From assembly GCA_007378955.1 (NCBI GenBank), contig VMGY01000005.1, positions 1 to 56,302 of the forward strand: a stretch of 56,302 nucleotides of DNA. Reading direction: 5' to 3'. Shown piece by piece: positions 2,258 through 42,317 of this stretch (its first letter is position 1; the number at the start of each line of letters is the position of its first letter). A program made the position numbers and the translations under genes. Under the pieces are notes generated by a model. That model was not told the DNA's origin. It did not search any database and saw only the letters and a program-made list of their open reading frames with translations. Source of the stretch: Parcubacteria group bacterium Athens0714_12 (GTDB taxonomy: Bacteria; Patescibacteriota; Patescibacteriia; UBA2591; VMGY01).

Positions 2258-5056
2258 TTATTCTTCCCAAATTTTCTCAAAAAATCCCAAAGGAATTAGT
2301 TTGATATTTTGATGGACTGGCTGGCCTTCAGCCACAAAAAATTCTTCAGATTTATAAATTTTATATCCTTTTGCTTTTGCTTCTAAATAATATTTGCCTT
2401 GTGGCGTTAAAAAAGAATATTGGCCTGTTTTATCCGTGATTTGCGGATTTTTTTGGTCATATTTTCCCGCTTGCCAAATTTCAAATTTTTCTGTTTGCGG
2501 ATTGAAAAAATAAATAGTGATTTCAGCCTGCGGAATCCTGGTTTCTTTATCTTTGACTTCCTCGCTAAAAACATATCCTTCCGGGTCAATTAAAATTTCT
2601 GTTTCTATTATTTTATCCTCGCCGTCCGCGTAATTAATCACTGTGGCAAGGGAAAATTGACCGGCAACGGGCGGCAATTGGATTTCCGCCTCATAAATTC
2701 CGTCTTTATCGGGGTCGCTGTAAATAAATTCGCCAATCAGCCATTCTTTCGCCTGCGCGGCGTCAAAAACCGCGTCAAAAATACCGGCTACTTCTTGGGC
2801 TTGCGCGAAGGGAATACTAAGTGTCATTGCGAGGAGCGAACGCAGGGATTTGCTTACATTGTCATTGCGAGGAGCGACTGAAGCGAAGCGGAAAGAGCGA
2901 CGAAGCAATCCCGTTGTCTGTTGCATTCCCATCGGGATTGCCGCGCTCAACTGCCTGCTGGCAGCCTCGCTCGCAATGACGTTATTATTAGCCCGCGCCG
3001 ACAAAGATTTAATAAAAATCAACTTTCCCTTAATCTCTTTTGCCGGTTTTATTGGTTTAATAAAAGACTTAAAATTACTGCCGGCTATTAAAACTGCTTG
3101 CTCTTTTCCCGCGCTCTTTATTTTAATATTGCCAAAAGACGAAACAAACAGCGGTTTTTCCTCTAAAATTTGTTCTGGCGCCAAAGACGACTCCTTAACA
3201 ATAATCGGCGGTTCTATTGGCTGAACTTCTGTCGGCGGACTTGGCGGCTGTTTTTTCTCGCGCGTCTTTACCTCGGGTTTCAAAACTAAAAATATTTTCT
3301 TGCCTGTCTTATTTAAAGCAATAGCCGTATTTTTAACTGCCGTGGCAATGCCGCGGACAATCTTTAAAGAAAAACTCTGAATATTTTGGCCGGTTCCTTT
3401 AATTATTCTAAAACTGGATTGAAAAATTCCGCGGACAATAATCACTCCGGATTTTCCCAAATCTTTGCCCGCTTCTTTAATTTCCAGAAATGGATTTTTA
3501 ATTACATCTTCAAAATCAGAGAAAGCCAATTCTTTGATTTCCTGATAACTATCTTTCAAATTCTGCCCAATCGCCTGCCAATTTTTTTTAATCTCTTGCC
3601 TAATAGAAATCTTTTCTTTGATTGGCGATTCCATTATTGGCTTTTCAATAATTGGCAATCCTTCTTTAGAAATAATTTCTTCAATCGGAGTGATTTTTTC
3701 CGGAATAATTTCTCCCGGGGGTTCTTTTGGAATAATCTTTTCCCATTCTTTAACCGGCCGCTCAATTTCTTCCCATTTTATTGGCAAAACCGCGGGAATC
3801 TCCGGCGTTGTTGTTATCTCTTTCTCTATTATTTCAAAATAAATAATTTCTTCGGGGCTGAAATTTCCCGCCGCGTCTTGAGATTTAATAATTAATTTAT
3901 GTTTGCCCAATTTTAACGGGGTAATAATTTTATATGACCACTTGCCTTGTAAATCCGTCAGTGTCTGATAAAAAACGAAATCATCAAGACTGATAAAAAT
4001 CTTACTGTCGGGTTCAGCCGTCCCGGAAATAATCGGCGTCTTTTCTAAAATTTGCTCGCCATCGGCGGGATAAACAATAATCAAACCATCCGGCGACAAA
4101 GTGTCTAAAATAATAGAATCTGAAATCACTTGCGAGGCAACGCCGCCCGGACTTCTGAATTTGGCGTAGACATTTTTCACGCCGTCGCCTATCTCCAAAT
4201 ACCAAATTCTATTCTCTTGATAATTTTCCCAGCTAATTCCCTCAAAACTTTCTTTATTGGAAACAGCCATTTGGCTGGCGTTTTCAGCCGACAAACTTAA
4301 AACAACTCTTCTGGAATAAGTATATAACGCGCCTTTATCAATCAGTAAAGAAGCTGGTTTCCGCTCTGTCGCCTGCTCCCCGGAAACCACTTGCGGCGGT
4401 GGCGGCAGGCCAGGTCCGCCACCTGCCGTCATACAAGCAGACGTATTAAAAGTACAATTAGAACTGCATCCTAATGTCCCAGCGGTAAAACCCCGGCTTA
4501 AACAAGTTGCTCCACCCAATAAAGAGCCGTCGCACTGCTCCCCTGTTTCTAAAAGTCCGTTGCCGCAAGTCAAAGTAACCCAATTTGTTTTTACTTTATA
4601 ATCCACGTCAACGCAAGAGCCGGTTTTAAGACAATTAAAAACAATCCAGCCGATGTTTTCACCCCAAGCGTATCCGTTAAAATTTCCCACTGAATCAATG
4701 GTTACGCCGCCGTAAGTTGGATTAAAATTTATCCAACCCGTATTCTCGCCCCAACCGTAGCCAGTCAAATTCCCGTTAACATCATTACTCACTCCGCCGT
4801 AGACAGGGCTTAAATCAATCCAGCCGGCATTTTCAGCCCAAACATAACCGGAAAGGCCGGTATCTGTTACTTGCACATTGCCTTCTGAACTGCCAAAATT
4901 AAGCCAGCCGATATTTTCACCCCAAGCGTATTTATAATTCGCGTCAATAGTTCCCGTAGTTTCCGCCGCAAACGCAAAATTAACAGTTATCAACTGCCCT
5001 ATTAAAGCAAAAAGTAATATGATAGTAATAAATTTATTTCGCCTCATTAATTTCAT
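2258..5056 (-). CDS. Large secreted or surface repeat protein. It has a signal peptide, four GYAWGENIGWINF-type repeats, a Myxococcus-type cysteine-rich repeat, a poly-Pro stretch, an Ig-like region, a PE-rich linker and a C-terminal prealbumin/CarboxypepD_reg-like domain.
   Basis: N-terminus MKLMRRNKFITIILLFALIGQLITVNFAFA (signal peptide). Repeats (GY[AV]W[GA]EN[IAT]GW[IL][NDV][FL]) occur four times. CGNGLLETGEQCDG...C matches the TIGR02232-like cysteine repeat. PGLPPPPQ follows. A MITE-like element (2825-2985) is carried in-frame. Confidence 0.6.
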   Translation of the reverse strand: MKLMRRNKFITIILLFALIGQLITVNFAFAAETTGTIDANYKYAWGENIGWLNFGSSEGNVQVTDTGLSGYVWAENAGWIDLSPVYGGVSNDVNGNLTGYGWGENTGWINFNPTYGGVTIDSVGNFNGYAWGENIGWIVFNCLKTGSCVDVDYKVKTNWVTLTCGNGLLETGEQCDGSLLGGATCLSRGFTAGTLGCSSNCTFNTSACMTAGGGPGLPPPPQVVSGEQATERKPASLLIDKGALYTYSRRVVLSLSAENASQMAVSNKESFEGISWENYQENRIWYLEIGDGVKNVYAKFRSPGGVASQVISDSIILDTLSPDGLIIVYPADGEQILEKTPIISGTAEPDSKIFISLDDFVFYQTLTDLQGKWSYKIITPLKLGKHKLIIKSQDAAGNFSPEEIIYFEIIEKEITTTPEIPAVLPIKWEEIERPVKEWEKIIPKEPPGEIIPEKITPIEEIISKEGLPIIEKPIMESPIKEKISIRQEIKKNWQAIGQNLKDSYQEIKELAFSDFEDVIKNPFLEIKEAGKDLGKSGVIIVRGIFQSSFRIIKGTGQNIQSFSLKIVRGIATAVKNTAIALNKTGKKIFLVLKPEVKTREKKQPPSPPTEVQPIEPPIIVKESSLAPEQILEEKPLFVSSFGNIKIKSAGKEQAVLIAGSNFKSFIKPIKPAKEIKGKLIFIKSLSARANNNVIASEAASRQLSAAIPMGMQQTTGLLRRSFRFASVAPRNDNVSKSLRSLLAMTLSIPFAQAQEVAGIFDAVFDAAQAKEWLIGEFIYSDPDKDGIYEAEIQLPPVAGQFSLATVINYADGEDKIIETEILIDPEGYVFSEEVKDKETRIPQAEITIYFFNPQTEKFEIWQAGKYDQKNPQITDKTGQYSFLTPQGKYYLEAKAKGYKIYKSEEFFVAEGQPVHQNIKLIPLGFFEKIWEE
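2825..2985. repeat. MITE-like palindromic element, family 1 (gtcattgcgagg...cctcgcaatgac), copy A, inside the surface-protein CDS
   Basis: One partial and one full unit: gtcattgcgaggagcga... then gtcattgcgaggagcgactgaagcgaagc...gcaatcccg...gggattgc...cctcgctcgcaatgac. The host ORF stays open across it. Confidence 0.7.
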
Positions 5057-34602: not shown

Positions 34603-37600
34603 TTAAATATCTAAATTTTTGACACTCTTGGCGTGCGTTTGGATGAATTTTTTTCTTGGCCCGACTTCCGAACCCATCAAGATTTCAAAGATTTCATCCG
34701 CTTTTTCAGCATCTTCAATGCCTACTTGCCTCATTGTTCTTGTTTCCGGATTCATGGTAGTCTCCCAAAGCTGGTCTGGGTTCATTTCTCCCAATCCTTT
34801 ATATCTTTGGATATTTGGCTGATCTTTCGTTTCTTTTAATATTTCGTCCTTCTCTTCATCCGAGTAAGCGTATTTTGATTTTTTATTTATTTGTATCTTG
34901 TAAAGAGGCGGCCGGGCGATATAAAGATAGCCATTTTTTATAATATCCGGAAAATATCTATAAAAAAGTGTTAAAAGCAAGGTTCTGATATGGGCGCCGT
35001 CAACATCAGCATCTGTCATTATAACAATCCGCTGATAACGCAATCCGCTGATATCAAATTGTTCGCCGATATTAGTGCCTAAAGCGACAATGAGCGCTTT
35101 TATTTCATTATTAGCCAGCATTTTATCCAGCCGCGCCTTTTCCACGTTTAAAATTTTTCCTCTTAAAGGAAGAATTGCTTGATTCCTTCTATCCCTTCCC
35201 TGTTTGCAACTATTATGAACAAAAACTCCCGAAGCTAACGCAAAATTGTGGGTATTCTCAACTTCTAAATCATAAACGTCTATTTTTTTATTTATTATTT
35301 CTAATTTTTTAATTTTGTGATTATAATTAAAAACTGCTTCTTTTAATTCTTTCTCATTGCCATTAAAGAAACGTTGACAAATTGTTTCATACCTTAAAAG
35401 ACTCTTGTCATTTTTTTGCAATCTTTCTTTTTGATATTTTTCCTTATTAAGTTCTCCATATTTTTCAAAAATCTCTTTCATTAATTTAAAAGATTTCTCT
35501 TGATAAGTCTGATTATAGGTTTCTCTTCTCTTGGCTCTAAATTTTGAAGTCCACTGCTCTTTCGTTTTTTGCCTCCGCCATCTTAAAAGCTCTTCATTCT
35601 GCCATTGCCTCTTTGCTTCTTCGGAAAGTTCCTTCTTTTTTTCAGGATGTTTGCAAAAATATTCCTTCACCCTTTCAGCTTGTTTTATTCTATTATTAGA
35701 ATTACTCCAATATCTTTTTTGACTTTCAAATAAAAGTTCATTGTTTTTTTCTTGATATTGCGGATTTTTTTTATAAAATTCAAGGGATTTTTGAATCATA
35801 TATTGCTTATACTCTTTATTCTCCCATTGTTTTTTTGCTCTCTCGCTCAACATCCTTCTCATTTTAGGAGTAGTCATAAATCTTCTTATCTTCTCCCTGT
35901 ATTCTTGCGATTGACGCGTCTTCCTGGATTTTTCCTTAACATCTTCCCGATGAAGACCAAATTTAATCATTTGACGATGGTATTCCCAATGATCTTCTTT
36001 TGGCATTCGCTTTATATTCTCTGGATTATTATTCAATTTATTAAAATCAATATGGTGTTTATCTGAATCGTTTATCTCTGAATAAATCCCGTTTTTGAGA
36101 TTATAATCATCAGCCAAAAGATGGGTGAAAATCCATTTTCTTTTTTCTGGATCAAAAATCATTTCATATCCTTCTATGGTAATCCTTCCTTCTTTTTTAG
36201 AATATTTTTTTCGCAAAGGCATTAAGGAATCTTTTACGGTTAAATCTTTCGCCATTTTATATGTCCCGTCTCTTAACATAAATTTGTGGTCTAAGGTACA
36301 TATTATTTCCTTATTATTATCAAGCGCCACTTTAATAACTTCAGTATCAATCTTTGTTCTCCTCGGATTCTCAATTAATCCGATTCCAATAGTTCCGTCA
36401 TTTCTGATTGTATAACAATAATTCTTTTTTCCTTCACCATATTCCTGAACTAATTGCTTAAAGGATAAATTTCGCCCGTCAGTTAAAGCTACTTCGGTAT
36501 CTTCTCCAAAACAGCCGCCGGCGCTGTCGCCTTCAACGATAAATAACTCGCTTTCCTCGGGACTTTTGGAACTGCAATCTGATAATTTGCCCGGCAAAGT
36601 CAAACCGTCCAAAACTCCTTTTCTTAAAACGGTTTCTCTGGCGGCTCTGGCCGCCTGCCTCGCCCGGGAAGCTAAAATCGCCTTGCCGATAATCGCCTCC
36701 CCTGTTTTCGGATTTTCTTCTAAAAAATTAGAAAAATATTCATTAAATAAAGTGTCAACTATTTGCCTGACTTCTGGATTGCCTAATTTAGTTTTTGTCT
36801 GGCCTTCAAATTGAGGGTCGCTTGCTTTAACGCTGATTACCGCGGTTAACCCCTCTCTGATGTCATCACCGCTCAAATTTTCGTCTTTTTCTTTTAAATA
36901 ACTTTTTTGGCGAGCATAACTGTTCAGCGCTCTTGTTAAAGCGGTCCTAAAACCGACTAAATGGGAGCCTCCTTCGTGCGTATTAATATTATTGGCGAAA
37001 CTGAAAACAGTTTCTTTGTATTCATTGGTATATTGCAAAGCAATTTCTACTTTTACGCCATTAAGTTCTCTTTCCAAATAAAAAATGTCTTCGTGCTTCG
37101 CCGAATTAGTTCTGTTTAAGTGGCGGACATAAGAGCTGATTCCGCCTTCAAAATAAAATTGATAAATATAATTGGATTCTTGGCGATTATCAATGATTGT
37201 AAATTTAACTCCTTTTGTCAAATATGCTTGTTGCCTCAAATGATTTATAACCAAATCCCAATTATACTCTATTTTAGGAAAAATTTCCGGGTCGGGCTGA
37301 AAAATAATTGTTGTTCCCCTTTCTTTTGTTTTGCCTATTGCTTTCACCTTTTTTAATGGGTCGCCCTGGCGATACTCCTGCGCATAAATATCGCCGTCTC
37401 TTTTTACTTCCGCTCTTAGATAAATAGATAAAGCGTTAACCACGCTCACGCCCACGCCATGCAAACCGCCGGAAACTTTATAAGCCTGATTTTCAAATTT
37501 GCCGCCAGCATGCAGTTTGGTTAATACCACTTCTAAAGCCGATTTGCCTGTTGGCTTATGGATATCAACCGGAATTCCTCTGCCATTATCAGAAACTCTG

Positions 37601-37872
37601 ACTATATTTTTCGGCAAAAGTTCAATCACGACTTCATTGCAAAAACCGGCCAACGCCTCATCAACCGCATTATCCAAACATTCCCAAATCAAATGATGCA
37701 ATCCTTGGCTGCCTGTATTGCCGATATACATCGCCGGCCTTTTTCTGACTGGCGCCAAACCTTCTAAAACAGTGATATGCTTCGCTTTATAATCATCAGA
37801 TGTTTTGCTCATTTTTTCTTTTAAGGTAGATTCATCTTCGCCTGAATTAGAATTTTTTATTTTATTTGCCAT
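34603..37872 (-). CDS. gyrB: DNA gyrase subunit B interrupted by a 434-aa intein
   Basis: GHKL ATPase N-terminus ([15 protein letters not shown]). Toprim EGDSAGG | intein | [24 protein letters not shown]. Without the intein the protein would be ~655 aa. Confidence 0.9.
   Translation of the reverse strand: [1089 protein letters not shown]
35212..36513 (-). mobile_element. Intein within gyrB (HINT domain with splicing blocks A, B, F and G; no LAGLIDADG or HNH endonuclease module)
   Basis: It begins [13 protein letters not shown] (Cys1), has block B ...CTLDHKF, and ends ...[22 protein letters not shown] followed by Ser+1. The ~300-aa central insert is a Lys/Glu/Gln-rich repeat ([12 protein letters not shown] / [12 protein letters not shown] / [12 protein letters not shown]). 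Confidence 0.8.
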
Positions 37873-38015: not shown

Positions 38016-40817
38016 TCATCCTCTTAATTTTGCTTTAAACTCTTCATCTAAACTATTTAAAATTTTCTTGATTTCTTGCTCCGCTTCTTCGGCTTTTAAT
38101 GTCTTTTCCCGAGATTGAAAAACCAAATGAAAGGCCAGGCTTTTTTTATCTTTTCCCAATTTTTCGCTTTCAAAAATATCAAAAAGCTCTATTTCTTGAA
38201 TTAAGGGCGATTGCCTTTTTATTGTTTTTAAAACCTCTTGATAAGGAATATTTTTATCTAAAACAAAAGCCAAATCCCTGATTACGGATGGATAATGCGC
38301 TATTTTTTGATAAATCTTTTTTTCTTGGCTTAATTCAATTAATTTTTCAAAATCCAATTCAAAAACAGCGCTGTTTTGATTGATTTCCATGTCGCCGATT
38401 TTTTTCCCGCTTATTTTTATTTCTATCAATTTTTTATTTTTTTTACAATCCAAACTTTCTGCCGCGATGGATATTTTTTCCATTAAATTTTCCAAAACGC
38501 CTTTTAAATATCTGAATATTTTCTCCGGCGGAAAATTATTTTCCTTAAAAGCGATCGCAACGGCGATCTTTTTTCTTTCTTCCGGCAATTCTTTATTGCT
38601 TGGCAAAAAAATATTTCCGATTTCAAAAACTTTGACTTTTTTAAAAAATTTCAAATTTTTCTCTAAATTTTCTTTTATTCTCGCTTTCAAGCTGGTTCTT
38701 AAAAATTCTTGTTCGGGATTTAAAGGATTGATAATCCGCAAATGCTTTTCCATATTTTCAGAGTTTTTTAAGCCATAAAAAGAATAATTATAAACTTCAT
38801 CAAAGCCAAAAGCAACTAAACTGTCTTTTATTTTATTTTCCAAAGCCAAACGTTTCGGCAATACAGACGGTCTCAATTCCGCCTTTAAAAAAGTGGGGCT
38901 CATTTTGTTATAGCCATAAATTCTGCCTATTTCTTCCACTAAATCTTCTTTGATTTTTATATCCTCCCGCCAAGAAGGGATAACCGCTAAAAAATAATCA
39001 TCTTCAATCCCGATGATTCTTTTCGCGATAACCCATTTCCTTTCCTTTAAAAAATCATTTATTTTTTCTTCTACCACTTTGCCCTCTTTTTTGCCGGCAT
39101 AAATCACTTTATTTTTTCCCGCGCATAAAGCCACGTGGTCAAGTCCTTGGGGAAAATTAAAACTATAATGAACATTGCCCTTTCCTTTAACAAAAATTAA
39201 ATCGCATTTTTGCAAATCAGCTCTTTTTATTTCTTTGCCGATTTCAGCTTGAGCTTCCGAACAGCGAGGAATAATAATGCCTGTTTTTTTATAAAGATAT
39301 TGGACAAAAGAAGAGCAGTCAAAATATTTCGGCGCTTCATTTTCTTTGGCGCCCAATTTATACGGCCTGCCGATTAATTTTTTCGCCTCTTCCGTTATTT
39401 GCTCCTGAATTTCAAATTTTTCCTTATCTGCCTGATAATTATATTCGCCGACTTTCAAGCCCAATGACAAAAATATTTTTTTGATTTTTTCTTTGCTGAT
39501 TTCTACGCCCAATAAATTACTGATAAAATTCGATTTTATTTTAATCGTTTTTCTTAAATAGATTGGATTTTTTGTGATTCTGATTATTTCTTTAACTTCC
39601 TTGCCTTGAGCTAATTTTTTAATTAACTCTATCGCTCTTTCTAAAGCTATTTCCGTAATATTCCAATCAATTCCTCTTTCAAATCTGATTGAACTCTCGG
39701 AACGAAGGCCTAATTTTTTAGAAGTTCGGCGGATGGAAGCCGGATTAAATTGGGCTGATTCTAAAATAATTTCTGTCGTCTTATCAGAAATCTCGCTTTC
39801 TTTTCCGCCCATCACTCCCGCCACGGCAACCGGTTTTTCAGCATTGGCAATCACCAGCATTTCTTTGTCTAATTCTCTTTCTTTATCATCAATAGTGATA
39901 ATTTTTTCTTCCTTTTTAGCCGGTCTAATAATTATAATTTTTTTATTTGTATTATTTGTATTATTTGTATTAATTCGTATATTAGCATCGATTTTTCCAA
40001 AATCAAAAGCGTGAAGCGGCTGGCCTAATTCCAATAAAATATAATTGGTAATATCTACGATATTATTAATCGCCTTAATGCCGCTATTTCTCAATCGCGA
40101 TTTTATCCATTCCGGCGATTCTTTGACTTTTACCCCTTTTATTACCGCGGCCGTATATTTAGGGCATAATTTAAAATCTTTTACTTTCACTTCCAATTCT
40201 TCTATTTTAGAATTTAAAAAATTCTTATTTTCTTCTTTTAGTTGTAAGTTGTGAGTTGTAAGTTGTGAGTTATTCATCGCCGCCACTTCCCTCGCTAATC
40301 CTAAAACAGAAAGACAATCCCCTCGGTTGGGCGTAATATCAATGTTAAAAATTACATCGTCCAAACCCAAGATTTTTTTTATATCATCGGTAATTTTTGT
40401 TTCCGGATTTAAAATATAAATACCGGCATGGCCTTCGCCAATGCCTAATTCATCTTCAGCGCAAAGCATTCCTTCTGAAATCACTTCTCTGATTTTACTT
40501 TTTTTAATAATCATCCCATTGGGCAAAACCGCGCCCGCCAAAGCCAAAGGAACTTTCTGGCCTTTCTTAATATTATCCGCGCCGCAAACTACTTTTTTTA
40601 TTCCTTCTTTGGTCTTTACTTTAACTAATCGCAATCTATCGGCGTGGGGATGTTTTTCAATTTCTAAAATTTCGCCGATTAAAATATTATTTATTTTTTC
40701 GCCCATTTTTTCTATTTTTTCCACCTCAAAGCCGGCCAACGTTAATTTTTCCGCCAATTCCTCCGGCGAAATATTGATTTTTACAAATTCTCTCAACCAA
40801 TTAAAAGATAATTTCAT
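38016..40817 (-). CDS. pheT: Phenylalanine--tRNA ligase beta subunit carrying an inserted NlpC/P60-like domain
   Basis: N-terminal tRNA-binding domain (HPHADRLRLVKVK...VVCGA); B3/4 and B5 regions; C-terminal FDX-ACB. An insert of about residues 462-608 lies between ...LGLKVGEYNY and LAVIPSWREDI. Confidence 0.9.
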   Translation of the reverse strand: MKLSFNWLREFVKINISPEELAEKLTLAGFEVEKIEKMGEKINNILIGEILEIEKHPHADRLRLVKVKTKEGIKKVVCGADNIKKGQKVPLALAGAVLPNGMIIKKSKIREVISEGMLCAEDELGIGEGHAGIYILNPETKITDDIKKILGLDDVIFNIDITPNRGDCLSVLGLAREVAAMNNSQLTTHNLQLKEENKNFLNSKIEELEVKVKDFKLCPKYTAAVIKGVKVKESPEWIKSRLRNSGIKAINNIVDITNYILLELGQPLHAFDFGKIDANIRINTNNTNNTNKKIIIIRPAKKEEKIITIDDKERELDKEMLVIANAEKPVAVAGVMGGKESEISDKTTEIILESAQFNPASIRRTSKKLGLRSESSIRFERGIDWNITEIALERAIELIKKLAQGKEVKEIIRITKNPIYLRKTIKIKSNFISNLLGVEISKEKIKKIFLSLGLKVGEYNYQADKEKFEIQEQITEEAKKLIGRPYKLGAKENEAPKYFDCSSFVQYLYKKTGIIIPRCSEAQAEIGKEIKRADLQKCDLIFVKGKGNVHYSFNFPQGLDHVALCAGKNKVIYAGKKEGKVVEEKINDFLKERKWVIAKRIIGIEDDYFLAVIPSWREDIKIKEDLVEEIGRIYGYNKMSPTFLKAELRPSVLPKRLALENKIKDSLVAFGFDEVYNYSFYGLKNSENMEKHLRIINPLNPEQEFLRTSLKARIKENLEKNLKFFKKVKVFEIGNIFLPSNKELPEERKKIAVAIAFKENNFPPEKIFRYLKGVLENLMEKISIAAESLDCKKNKKLIEIKISGKKIGDMEINQNSAVFELDFEKLIELSQEKKIYQKIAHYPSVIRDLAFVLDKNIPYQEVLKTIKRQSPLIQEIELFDIFESEKLGKDKKSLAFHLVFQSREKTLKAEEAEQEIKKILNSLDEEFKAKLRG
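38994..39434 (-). other. NlpC/P60-like cysteine peptidase/amidase domain embedded in PheT
   Basis: GRPYKLGAKENEAPKYFDCSSFVQYLYKKTGIIIPRCSEAQ...DLIFV...LDHVALCAG matches the NlpC/P60 consensus (G.PY.wGG....FDCSG.V.Y......LPR.s..Q; catalytic Cys then His). Confidence 0.6.
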
Positions 40818-40836: not shown

Positions 40837-41919
40837 TCAAAACTGCTTAATAAATCTTAAATCGCCTGAATATGACAATCTAATATCATTAACTCCATAA
40901 TATAGCATCATTAATCTGTCCACGCCCATGCCAAAAGCAAAACCGGAATATTTATTCGGGTCAATTTTCATATTTTTTAAAACCGCGGGATGAACCATTC
41001 CCGCCCCCAAAGTTTCTATCCAGCCATCGCCGCCGCAAAAACCGCAACCCTTGCCGCAACATATCAAGCAGGTCATATCCACTTCAATGCTTGGCTCGGT
41101 AAAAGGAAAAAAATTTGGCCTGACTCTGATTTTAGCGCTTTCTCCAAAAATTGTTTTAACAAAATATTGTAAGGTACCGATTAAATCAGTCATTTTTATA
41201 TTTTCGCCGATAACCAATCCTTCTAATTGGTGAAAGGTTGTTTCATGGCCGGCGTCTGTCGCTTCATGCCTGAAAACTCTGCCCGGCATTATCAGCCTTA
41301 CCGGCGGCTTCCTTTTTTCCATTGCCCTTAATTGCACGGGCGATGTATGGGTTCTCAATAAAAGTTTATTTTTTGAATTTTGTTCCGAATCCCCTGACCC
41401 TAAATCAAGTTCAGGGGATTCAGGGCTATTGCCGGACTTTATATAAAATGTATCCCATAAATCGCGCGAGGGATGTTCTTTGGGAATATTTAACAAGTCA
41501 AAATTATATTCTTCGGTTTCTGCTTCCGGACCATCAACTATTTCAAATCCCATGGAAACAAAAACATCTGTTATTTTGCGCGTAAATTGAGTCAGGGGAT
41601 GCAAATGGCCGATTTCTATTTTCTCCCCCGGCAAAGTAATGTCAAAATTTTCTTCCAAGGCCTCTGCTTTTATTTTTAATTCCTGAATCTTTTTTTTTGC
41701 TTCTGATTCTATTCTTAATTTTACTTCATTGGCCAGCTTGCCGATTATTTTTTTTTCTTCCAATGATAAATTTTTTAAATTTTTTAAAATTTTGGTCAGC
41801 TCCCCTTCTTTCCTGCCTAAATATTTTTTCTGAATTTTTTCCAATAAATCAAAATTAGAAACATTTTTGATTTCTTCCATGGCTTTGTCTTTAATTTTAT
41901 TTAAAGAATCTTTAATCAT
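40837..41919 (-). CDS. pheS: Phenylalanine--tRNA ligase alpha subunit
   Basis: ...HPSRDLWDTFYI...LLRTHTSPVQLRAME...FRHEATDAGHETTFHQLEGLVIG...GWIETLGAGMVHP. Confidence 0.9.
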   Translation of the reverse strand: MIKDSLNKIKDKAMEEIKNVSNFDLLEKIQKKYLGRKEGELTKILKNLKNLSLEEKKIIGKLANEVKLRIESEAKKKIQELKIKAEALEENFDITLPGEKIEIGHLHPLTQFTRKITDVFVSMGFEIVDGPEAETEEYNFDLLNIPKEHPSRDLWDTFYIKSGNSPESPELDLGSGDSEQNSKNKLLLRTHTSPVQLRAMEKRKPPVRLIMPGRVFRHEATDAGHETTFHQLEGLVIGENIKMTDLIGTLQYFVKTIFGESAKIRVRPNFFPFTEPSIEVDMTCLICCGKGCGFCGGDGWIETLGAGMVHPAVLKNMKIDPNKYSGFAFGMGVDRLMMLYYGVNDIRLSYSGDLRFIKQF

Positions 41920-42317
41920 TTTTCATCCTCGTTCTTTTTTACTTTCTTCCTTCTTTCTATTAGAAAGAAAAATTCTAAAAAAGCTAAAAATAAAATAAAA
42001 AAAGTGATATTCCACCATCTAAGCAAGCGCAAGCTCTGCAAAACAAGGAAAAAAATAATTAAAGAAGAAAGCCAAATGGCTTGGCGAAAGCACACGATAA
42101 CTTGCTTAAAAATCAAATCTTTGGAAAAACGGGCTCTGATAATAAAACCGGCTAAAGATAAAATTCCCAATAAAGCAAGAAAAAAACCAAAATAAAACAA
42201 TAAAAATCCGTAAAAATTCGTTATTTCCGGGTCAAGGTTATAAATAATAACGCCAAAACAAACCCAGCAAACCAAAGTGATTAAACTAATTAAAGAAAGA
42301 TATTTTTTTAGAGTCAT
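41916..42317 (-). CDS. Hypothetical small membrane protein with 4 predicted TM segments
   Basis: Hydrophobic segments; it overlaps the pheS start by 4 nt. Confidence 0.4.
   Translation of the reverse strand: MTLKKYLSLISLITLVCWVCFGVIIYNLDPEITNFYGFLLFYFGFFLALLGILSLAGFIIRARFSKDLIFKQVIVCFRQAIWLSSLIIFFLVLQSLRLLRWWNITFFILFLAFLEFFFLIERRKKVKKNEDEK

Follow-up and report, generated by a model that had tools for sequence, protein, structure and literature searches.

We examined a 56,302-nucleotide stretch of DNA from Parcubacteria group bacterium Athens0714_12 (assembly GCA_007378955.1, contig VMGY01000005.1, positions 1 to 56,302 of the forward strand), referred to below as the window, which encodes both subunits of phenylalanyl-tRNA synthetase (PheRS) and in which the gene for the beta subunit, pheT, carries a nested, complete, and seemingly active domain of the NlpC/P60 (C40) family. 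The pheT open reading frame (ORF) occupies 38016..40817 on the minus strand and encodes a protein of 933 residues, assigned from the ORF itself, TIGR00472, Pfam, and an AlphaFold2 (AF2) model. This protein scores 733 bits against TIGR00472 (pheT_bact), for which the cut-off is 402.65, and Pfam recognizes in it tRNA_bind (residues 46-139), B3_4 (218-403), a B5 domain split in two, CLM (642-793), and FDX-ACB (841-932). The equivalog score, the five PheT Pfam domains, and the neighboring pheS together identify it as a bacterial PheRS beta subunit, and the AF2 model of the full-length protein has a predicted local distance difference test score (pLDDT) of 85.8. The alpha subunit gene, pheS (40837..41919, minus strand; Pfam Phe_tRNA-synt_N and tRNA-synt_2d), lies directly upstream of pheT in one operon, and the same order of pheS followed by an insert-bearing pheT is found at two further loci (P0021 and L017).

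Position and fold of the insert in PheRS beta

Translation of 38994..39434 on the minus strand gives QADKEKFEIQEQITEEAKKLIGRPYKLGAKENEAPKYFDCSSFVQYLYKK...GLDHVALCAGKNKVIYAG...IIGIEDDY, residues 462-608 of the 933-residue ORF and exactly the peptide that an initial annotation of this DNA had quoted as an insert in PheT. Alignment with Escherichia coli PheT (3PCO_B) pairs residues 1-458 of the window protein with 1-439 and residues 607-932 with 442-794, and the insert of ∼148 residues (459-606) stands where the E. coli protein has a 2-residue turn. With its linkers, the nested domain therefore spans 39000..39443 (minus strand), as delimited by the gap in the E. coli alignment and by insert-less PheTs of Patescibacteria; the core matched by Pfam (PF00877, residues 483-595) corresponds to 39033..39371 (minus strand). 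On its N-terminal side lies the first half of B5 (residues 420-458; 39444..39560, minus strand), consisting of a strand, two helices, and a strand ending in LKVGE according to AF2, Pfam, and the E. coli alignment, and on its C-terminal side the second half, DYFLAVIPSWREDIKIKEDLVEEIGRIYGYN (residues 607-640; 38898..38999, minus strand), defined by the Pfam B5 match and AF2. The B5 match is itself split into two stretches, with profile positions 35-67 matching residues 604-636, and the model places strands at 422-428 and 455-461 and helices at 429-436 and 442-451 before the insert, and a strand at 608-613 and a helix at 623-634 after it, with high confidence over both junctions. There is thus no doubt about the anatomy: the insert is nested in the solvent-exposed β-hairpin "wing" of the B5 winged-helix domain. 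The initial annotation had been right that the insert exists but had taken the flanking segment with LGLKVGE for a B3/4-like region; because LGLKVGE belongs to the N-terminal half of B5, the insert does not lie between B3/4 and B5 but inside the B5 hairpin.

The B3/4 editing domain itself is intact (39609..40166, minus strand; Pfam B3_4, E = 8.1e-70). From the literature on PheRS editing, we take the editing-site residues of the E. coli beta subunit to be Asn-254, His-265, Gly-318, Glu-334, Thr-354, and Ala-356. The equivalents of the first four do not vary among 25 PheTs, insert-bearing and insert-less, and those of Thr-354 and Ala-356 are serine in the PheTs of Patescibacteria whether the insert is present or not. 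Since the editing motifs of B3/4 are kept, the insert is an addition to editing and not a replacement of it, and the idea that it substitutes for a degenerate editing domain is ruled out. An Asn/Thr-rich stretch of low complexity within B3/4 (NTNNTNNTNKK, residues 279-289; 39951..39983, minus strand) is the only part of that domain with a pLDDT below 50 and falls in a gap of the E. coli sequence.

The assignment of the insert to the NlpC/P60 family is far beyond chance. Residues 483-595 match PF00877 with an E-value of 3.5e-16 and 59.5 bits (gathering score 23), a significant profile match of just the kind that the initial annotation had staked its reading on. Against the sequences of solved structures, the insert alone finds the catalytic domain of a Clostridioides difficile autolysin (7CFL) as its best match (E = 1.3e-15), with the diffocin hub hydrolase, MepS/Spr, LytE, and Rip proteins ranking next. 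An AF2 model of the insert, built from 20 homologous inserts, has a pLDDT of 92.8, with a helix at 43-52 followed by five strands, and the top 50 matches of this model in a Foldseek search of the PDB are all NlpC/P60 proteins with a probability of 1.00, again led by 7CFL_A (E = 7e-12, TM-scores of 0.76 and 0.88). The predicted structure has the papain-like α+β arrangement, in which an N-terminal helix bearing the cysteine packs on an antiparallel sheet bearing the histidine. Searches of the insert region with Pfam, NCBIfam, and Foldseek returned only models of the NlpC/P60 clan and no homology to B3/4, YbaK/INS, AlaX, Dtd, or Pth, and the family name given at the outset is thus borne out by profile, by solved structures, and by predicted fold.

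The initial annotation had also proposed a catalytic cysteine in FDCSS and a downstream histidine, and alignment with 7CFL and MepS confirms these as Cys-501 and His-561. Cys-501 (TGC codon, 39315..39317, minus strand), the predicted nucleophile, aligns with the catalytic cysteine of both proteins, and His-561 (CAC, 39135..39137, minus strand), the predicted base, lies in an LDHVAL motif that aligns with SHVGIY of 7CFL. The third position of the triad, 12 residues beyond the histidine, is atypical in the window copy, where Tyr-573 (TAT, 39099..39101, minus strand) aligns with the histidine of MIHA in 7CFL. Cysteine and histidine are invariant in all 61 PheT-embedded domains that we collected and in all 113 free-standing relatives; of the expected triad, this much is conserved, whereas the third position varies among the embedded domains. 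It is a polar residue of the usual kind in most of them, being His in 39/61 and Asp, Glu, Gln, or Asn in 16/61 (5, 4, 4, and 3 copies, respectively), with Tyr and Met in two copies each and Ser and Ala in one each; the window copy is among those that lack such a residue, and its two closest relatives (P0002 and P0003) have His. The loop that precedes the catalytic histidine (HYSFNFPQG) is also ∼6 residues longer than in 7CFL.

Three further features of the window may be recorded here. A strongly hydrophobic ORF of 133 residues with no Pfam match (41916..42317, minus strand) shares 4 nt with the start of pheS, and a 123-residue ORF, also without a Pfam match, occupies the equivalent site upstream of pheS on the P0021 contig, which suggests that a small membrane protein is conserved in the pheST operon. 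The neighboring gyrB (34603..37872, minus strand; 1089 residues) contains an intein at its Toprim region (∼35212..36513, residues 454-887; Pfam Intein_splicing, E = 1.5e-18), with junctions GG|CFGED...VHN|SCKQG and a long Lys-rich middle where a homing endonuclease might be expected. Finally, a 932-residue ORF at 2258..5056 (minus strand), with only weak matches to an Ig-like domain (Big_13) and CarboxypepD_reg, probably encodes a large surface protein that has nothing to do with the PheT insert.

Distribution of the insert and its leaderless relatives

The occurrence of the insert was assessed by a search of 5.8 billion proteins with full-length PheT, of which the best 120 matches were examined, and by an exhaustive search of 1.84 billion cluster representatives with a hidden Markov model (HMM) of the insert, which gave 165 matches below 1e-30; together the HMM matches and the full-length search gave a pooled set of 169 sequences. 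PF00877 is found at the same site in 20 of the 120 best PheT matches, which are 36-63% identical, and the remaining matches, annotated as PheTs of Patescibacteria or Parcubacteria, do not have it; the insert is specific to particular lineages. In the pooled set, 61/169 sequences, full-length and fragmentary, are insert-bearing PheTs, all of them from Patescibacteria where a source is named. They show two architectures, one of ∼910-1050 residues with the B2 oligonucleotide-binding (OB) domain and one of ∼777-853 residues without it; loss of B2 from the PheRS beta subunit of the Candidate Phyla Radiation (CPR) was already known (PMC5370408). A protein identical to that of the window (P0001) is encoded on an independent ENA contig, and the same architecture is present in public records annotated simply as PheT (for example, KKQ52823.1, Parcubacteria GW2011_GWD2_38_12).

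In four homologues, the insert is 59, 61, 43, and 52% identical to that of the window protein and the whole protein 63, 64, 51, and 53%, so that the insert diverges at about the rate of its essential host. This parallel, together with the retention of Cys and His, argues that the insert is under selection, and judged by these sequence comparisons it is real, old, and selectively maintained over a wide range of Patescibacteria. Its distribution is nevertheless patchy. A neighbor-joining tree of PheT with the insert removed, which carries no support values and is affected by biased sampling, distributes the insert-bearing proteins over pure clades of 15, 15, 9, 3, 3, 1, 1, and 1 members interleaved with insert-less ones, and parsimony requires eight changes of state. 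On such a tree, either one gain followed by losses or several gains, for instance by recombination with a stand-alone gene of the kind described below, would account for the pattern.

Outside PheT, the closest relatives of the insert are small proteins. Single domains that score at least 122 bits against the insert HMM are either embedded in PheT or make up small single-domain proteins of 122-220 residues, typically ∼140, which share the extended loop in the form G..G.Y...FP.GIGHV; those of 133-165 residues score 122-169 bits. The only exceptions are P0242 and P0256, extended proteins of the secreted type with wall-type partners (LysM, coiled coil) that cluster with the secreted group, and the domains of multi-repeat secreted NlpC/P60 proteins reach at most 108 bits each. 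A further search found 1137 such small proteins at E ≤ 1e-10, of which the best 120 are all 132-180 residues long. Yanofsky-, Colwell-, Jorgensen-, and Giovannonibacteria as well as Paceibacterota encode them, under the annotation "C40 family peptidase" or "LytE", and no NCBIfam model reaches its cut-off with either the insert or the free-standing relatives. In the latter, the median distance from Met-1 to the start of the domain is 6 residues, and a hydrophobic N terminus is present in 1/113, compared with 59/74 multi-repeat NlpC/P60 proteins; being leaderless, the free-standing relatives should be cytoplasmic. A route to the wall, whether by signal peptide, lipobox, wall-binding domain, or holin context, is not indicated for the group, in which the PheT host is cytoplasmic, the relatives are leaderless, and the neighbors are housekeeping genes. 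On the HMM scores and shared loop, we regard it as secure that the insert derives from a Patescibacteria subfamily of ∼140-residue leaderless NlpC/P60 proteins.

Full-text literature searches returned no description of an NlpC/P60 insertion in PheRS or another aminoacyl-tRNA synthetase (aaRS), of NlpC/P60 proteins associated with tRNA or GatCAB, or of insertions in B5, and a full-text search on D-aminoacyl-tRNA deacylases in the CPR returned none of the PheT-NlpC architecture or of the subfamily. Both are apparently undescribed, the databases labeling the proteins PheT or C40 peptidase.

Fusion partners and gene neighborhoods

PheT is one of four enzymes to which the domain is fused, the fusions to the other three (QueH, TYW3, and SelA) having arisen independently. 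An NlpC-QueH fusion with epoxyqueuosine reductase (P0184; Pfam QueH, E = 1.3e-60) is encoded at L173:6001-7005 (plus strand; 334 residues), and many assemblies contribute to the 18 members of its cluster at 90% identity, NCBI MCD6412213.1 among them. A TYW3-NlpC protein of 318 residues (P0403; Pfam TYW3, E = 2.1e-41) is encoded at L174:6001-6957 (plus strand), and an NlpC-SelA protein of 554 residues (MBI2027804.1; Pfam SelA, E = 1.7e-104) at L012:266-1930 (plus strand), where a tRNA-Gln gene precedes it. TYW3/Taw3 is a methyltransferase of the wybutosine pathway of tRNAPhe, and SelA transfers selenium to Ser-tRNASec. All the fusion partners have tRNA or aminoacyl-tRNA as their target, with PheT and TYW3 dedicated to tRNAPhe. 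The surroundings of the fusion genes are of a similar kind, with gatB 1.5 kb downstream of the NlpC-QueH gene and with gatB, an AspRS-like gene, gatA, and TYW2/Trm5 upstream of the TYW3-NlpC gene.

The combination with B5 also occurs on its own. Four proteins of ∼200 residues (P0202, P0228, P0243, and P0257) consist of a B5-like domain with NlpC/P60 nested at the same hairpin; their concatenated flanks align with PheT B5 in hhalign with a probability of 96.2% (E = 2.3e-9) and 64 columns in register, and HMMs of the half-domains give a weak signal, at E = 8e-4 in P0202. The genes are independent ones in housekeeping contexts, after secDF or rnc and away from pheST (for instance, L169:6001-6618 and L171:6001-6606, both plus strand). 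An autonomous B5-NlpC gene of this type could serve as a recombination donor, which would explain the patchy distribution of the insert.

Gene neighborhoods were taken from 160 loci with the FDCSSFVQ motif in GTDB genomes and JGI metagenomes, in which ORFs and tRNA genes were called; free-standing genes of the Patescibacteria type were de-duplicated at 70% identity, and LytE-like genes of Firmicutes served as controls. Among clusters represented by loci of at least 8 kb, gatA, gatB, or gatC is present in 10/25 and PheRS genes in 4/25. When the 148 ORFs lying within 3 kb at 27 representative loci were classified with Pfam, GatA (Amidase) was the commonest family (nine loci), followed by PheS, FDX-ACB, and the tRNA_anti-codon OB domain (three loci each) and B3_4 and MiaA (two each). 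At L031 and L078, the free-standing gene divergently adjoins an insert-less pheS-pheT pair. At L005, a Jorgensenbacteria contig, and L041, an unclassified bacterial metagenome-assembled genome, it divergently adjoins instead a monomeric PheRS of mitochondrial type (L005:4621-5772 and L041:5803-6993, both minus strand; 383 and 396 residues), composed of tRNA-synt_2d and FDX-ACB, with neither a beta subunit nor an editing domain.

Association with tRNA genes is also recurrent. At 10 loci (L005, L009, L018, L024, L031, L078, L121, L123, L148, and L162), the free-standing gene stands between tRNA-Met(CAT) and tRNA-Asp(GTC) on one strand, usually with a second tRNA-Met(CAT) and gatCA nearby; the CAT tRNAs may be initiator, elongator, or tRNA-Ile2. 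At two others (L011 and L107), the order is tRNA-Gly, NlpC, tRNA-Cys. The gaps between the NlpC gene and the co-oriented tRNA genes are often <100 nt, and no tRNA genes are found in the Firmicutes control loci. A tRNA gene on the same strand within 300 nt was found for 9/34 clusters, compared with a background of 12.7% from the same loci that is itself inflated by overlapping ORFs and tRNA-rich loci; the enrichment is real, although the events are not independent.

Two other arrangements were seen near free-standing genes. At L114, ARAGORN calls a tRNA whose anticodon has four bases (cgaa), and hence an anticodon loop of 8 nt, 650 nt downstream of the gene (3543-3616, plus strand). In L003:1442-1801 and L147:3418-3777, the gene lies between a PP2C-like gene upstream and a NUDIX gene downstream, in a cluster that comprises six genes for tRNA-Ser and tRNA-Arg, the transfer-messenger RNA gene, and smpB.

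Function of the nested domain and comparison with known systems

Given the cytoplasmic location, the four fusions to tRNA enzymes, the placement within tRNA operons, and the linkage to gatCAB and PheRS, a role in the cell wall is untenable and one linked to tRNA is the best supported. We therefore favor, at a probability of roughly 45%, a cytoplasmic thiol hydrolase whose substrate is an acyl group linked to tRNA. Hydrolysis by the cysteine of an acyl or aminoacyl group carried on tRNA would be the most economical chemistry, a proposal that we rate at a little under even odds, and we infer both the tRNA-linked nature of the substrate and the chemistry performed on it from this comparative pattern. 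In such a mechanism, Cys-501 would attack the ester or amide carbonyl of the acyl group on the tRNA, with aminoacyl-, mis-aminoacyl-, or N-blocked aminoacyl-tRNA as candidate substrates; a thioester would form, and its hydrolysis would free the acyl group. The catalytic core of the alpha subunit is in contact with B5 (bioRxiv 10.1101/067587), and the nested module is hence predicted to be held near the site of Phe-tRNA synthesis; in this lineage, PheRS itself would carry the clean-up activity in cis, next to the alpha core that B5 touches.

More tentatively, the leaderless subfamily and its embedded copies may together form an unrecognized tRNA-dependent family that works beside PheRS and GatCAB in bacteria of minimal genome, either as a papain-like thiol aminoacyl- or acyl-tRNA deacylase or as an aminoacyl transferase; the deacylase version of this doubtful but possible scheme would be a new factor for editing, in trans and in cis, or for recycling. 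The suggestion made in the initial annotation, that the insert is a repurposed editing or hydrolytic module, is accordingly not proven but gains circumstantial support from the leaderless subfamily, the SelA, QueH, and TYW3 fusions, the tRNA clusters, and the gatCAB and pheST neighbors.

Several observations weigh against a tRNA-linked hydrolase. The canonical p60 motifs are all kept (PY.YG, FDCS, LPR.S..Q, GDL.F, HVG.Y,.IHA, and ARR), and every neighbor in sequence or structure whose function is known cleaves peptidoglycan as a DL- or DD-endopeptidase, so that a γ-D-glutamyl peptide stays plausible as the substrate. Tyr-573 may weaken catalysis in the window copy. The block of tRNA-Met, NlpC, tRNA-Asp, and gatCA may represent one ancestral arrangement, ∼60% of the free-standing loci have neither a tRNA nor a Gat neighbor, the PheT-embedded loci show no nearby tRNA or gat genes, and small genomes are in any case rich in translation genes.

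The same enzymology leads to the most serious alternative, a cytoplasmic γ-glutamyl or muropeptide hydrolase for the recycling or scavenging of peptidoglycan peptides, with no tRNA role, that was captured from beside pheST into a permissive loop of PheT and would now merely be carried along by an abundant housekeeping protein. We consider this possible but unlikely. It is favored by the intact motifs and by the characterized relatives, all of them peptidoglycan endopeptidases, and capture would have been easy, given free-standing copies that adjoin an insert-less pheST at L031 and L078 and a B5 hairpin, a mere 2-residue turn in E. coli, that tolerates an insert; loci in Patescibacteria also hold murA, a penicillin-binding protein gene, murG, and YkuD. 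It does not account, however, for four different fusions, each with an enzyme that acts on tRNA (PheT, SelA, QueH, and TYW3), and the placement between co-oriented tRNA genes, the recurrent linkage to gatCAB, and the persistence of an autonomous B5 with the nested insert are likewise left unexplained.

An aminoacyl transferase, in which the thioester on the cysteine would be passed to an amine acceptor such as a stem-peptide precursor of peptidoglycan, by analogy with Fem/MurM or the L/F-transferase, appears improbable. The NlpC/P60 superfamily does include the LRAT/PLAAT acyltransferases, which use the same acyl-enzyme chemistry at cysteine, and there are faint LRAT matches in Pfam; a transferase would also make sense of motifs of the peptidoglycan-peptide type in a cytoplasmic protein linked to tRNA. 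The argument is nonetheless purely inferential, no acceptor-binding feature was identified, and the target of QueH and TYW3 is the anticodon loop and not the acylated end of tRNA. A non-catalytic module for structure, docking, or regulation, a pseudo-enzyme binding peptides or proteins like RipD, seems about as improbable. Such inactive NlpC/P60 binders exist, RipD itself (4JXB) being among the Foldseek matches, and the third triad residue is variable, with Tyr, Met, Ala, or Ser in some copies. RipD-type proteins have, however, lost their catalytic residues, whereas Cys and His are here retained in every one of the embedded and free-standing copies, down to ∼35% identity.

An artifact or selfish element, whether a mis-assembly, a frameshift fusion, an intein-like insertion, or the remnant of a prophage endolysin, can be dismissed as extremely improbable, for although the neighboring gyrB carries an intein, phage endolysins are typically represented by leaderless enzymes of the NlpC/P60 and CHAP types, and integration takes place at tRNA genes, the architecture is shared by dozens of independent assemblies, the GC content of the insert (0.34-0.35 compared with ∼0.30) is unremarkable, and the free-standing genes lie among housekeeping genes with no phage genes near. 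Two specific candidates of this kind were rejected. PheT gives no Intein or Hint match in Pfam, and its junctions (GEYNYQ and IEDDYF|LAV) lack conserved splice residues, namely Cys or Ser at +1, His-Asn at the C terminus, and Cys, Ser, or Thr at +1 of the C-extein. A prophage endolysin at a tRNA gene is at odds with the housekeeping neighbors, with a gene fitted tightly between two co-oriented tRNAs, and with conservation of this arrangement across proteins <70% identical, and the fusions cannot arise in this way.

The editing and deacylase modules of aaRSs are built on a handful of known folds. If the tRNA-linked hydrolase is correct, a papain-like cysteine hydrolase in PheRS would be an additional one, and a domain annotated universally as a cell-wall hydrolase would have a cytoplasmic, translation-linked role across the Patescibacteria/CPR, a very large share of bacterial diversity; the comparative pattern of tRNA operons, gatCAB and pheST neighbors, and SelA, QueH, and TYW3 fusions names candidate substrates and partners. 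Should the γ-glutamyl or muropeptide hydrolase prove right instead, the protein would still show clearly that an essential aaRS can hold an intact enzyme domain within one of its loops, and would be a warning against calling hundreds of small CPR genes for "C40 family peptidases" autolysins.

Comparison with known systems places the nested domain closest in structure to the p60-type endopeptidases (C. difficile Acd24020, 7CFL; E. coli MepS/Spr, 2K1G and 7V6S; Bacillus subtilis LytE and CwlO; Enterococcus faecium SagA), with which it shares the fold (TM-scores of 0.71-0.76), the DCS cysteine at the N terminus of a helix, the histidine on the β-sheet, and the PY.YG, LPR.S..Q, GDL.F, and ARR motifs. 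It differs from them in having no signal peptide or wall-binding module and in being nested in a cytoplasmic aaRS, in the longer loop before the histidine (G..HYSFNFPQG.DHV), which the insert has in common with the leaderless subfamily, in the Tyr at the third triad position of the window copy, and in a context that is linked to tRNA and not to the cell wall. The LRAT/PLAAT (H-RAS-like) proteins show that cytoplasmic enzymes of the NlpC/P60 fold can use a cysteine acyl-enzyme on substrates other than peptidoglycan, as proposed for the insert, although they form a separate family (PF04970), matched only faintly here, that acts on lipids in eukaryotes and viruses.

The host protein, for its part, has all the domains of a canonical PheRS beta subunit (3PCO_B; Thermus thermophilus 1PYS and 2IY5_B) in order (B1/B2, B3/4, B5, B6-7 CLM, and B8 FDX-ACB), with the pheS-pheT operon and the editing motifs kept, and departs from it in a 148-residue enzyme domain in place of the 2-residue B5 turn and, in related clades, in the absence of B2. 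Another essential housekeeping protein encoded in this genome, that of gyrB, likewise contains a large in-frame insertion, its intein; the PheT insert, by contrast, has no Hint fold, splice-junction residues, or homing endonuclease and is expected in the mature protein. In its logic, the arrangement most resembles that of the aaRS editing hydrolases (INS of ProRS with YbaK and ProX, AlaRS with AlaX, N2 of ThrRS, and Dtd), in which an activity is found both nested in the synthetase and as a small stand-alone protein, just as the stand-alone NlpC form occurs beside an insert-less pheT at L009, L031, L078, and L148. The papain-like thiol hydrolase fold is unrelated to theirs, the deacylase role is here a prediction, and PheRS already has an editing site in B3/4.

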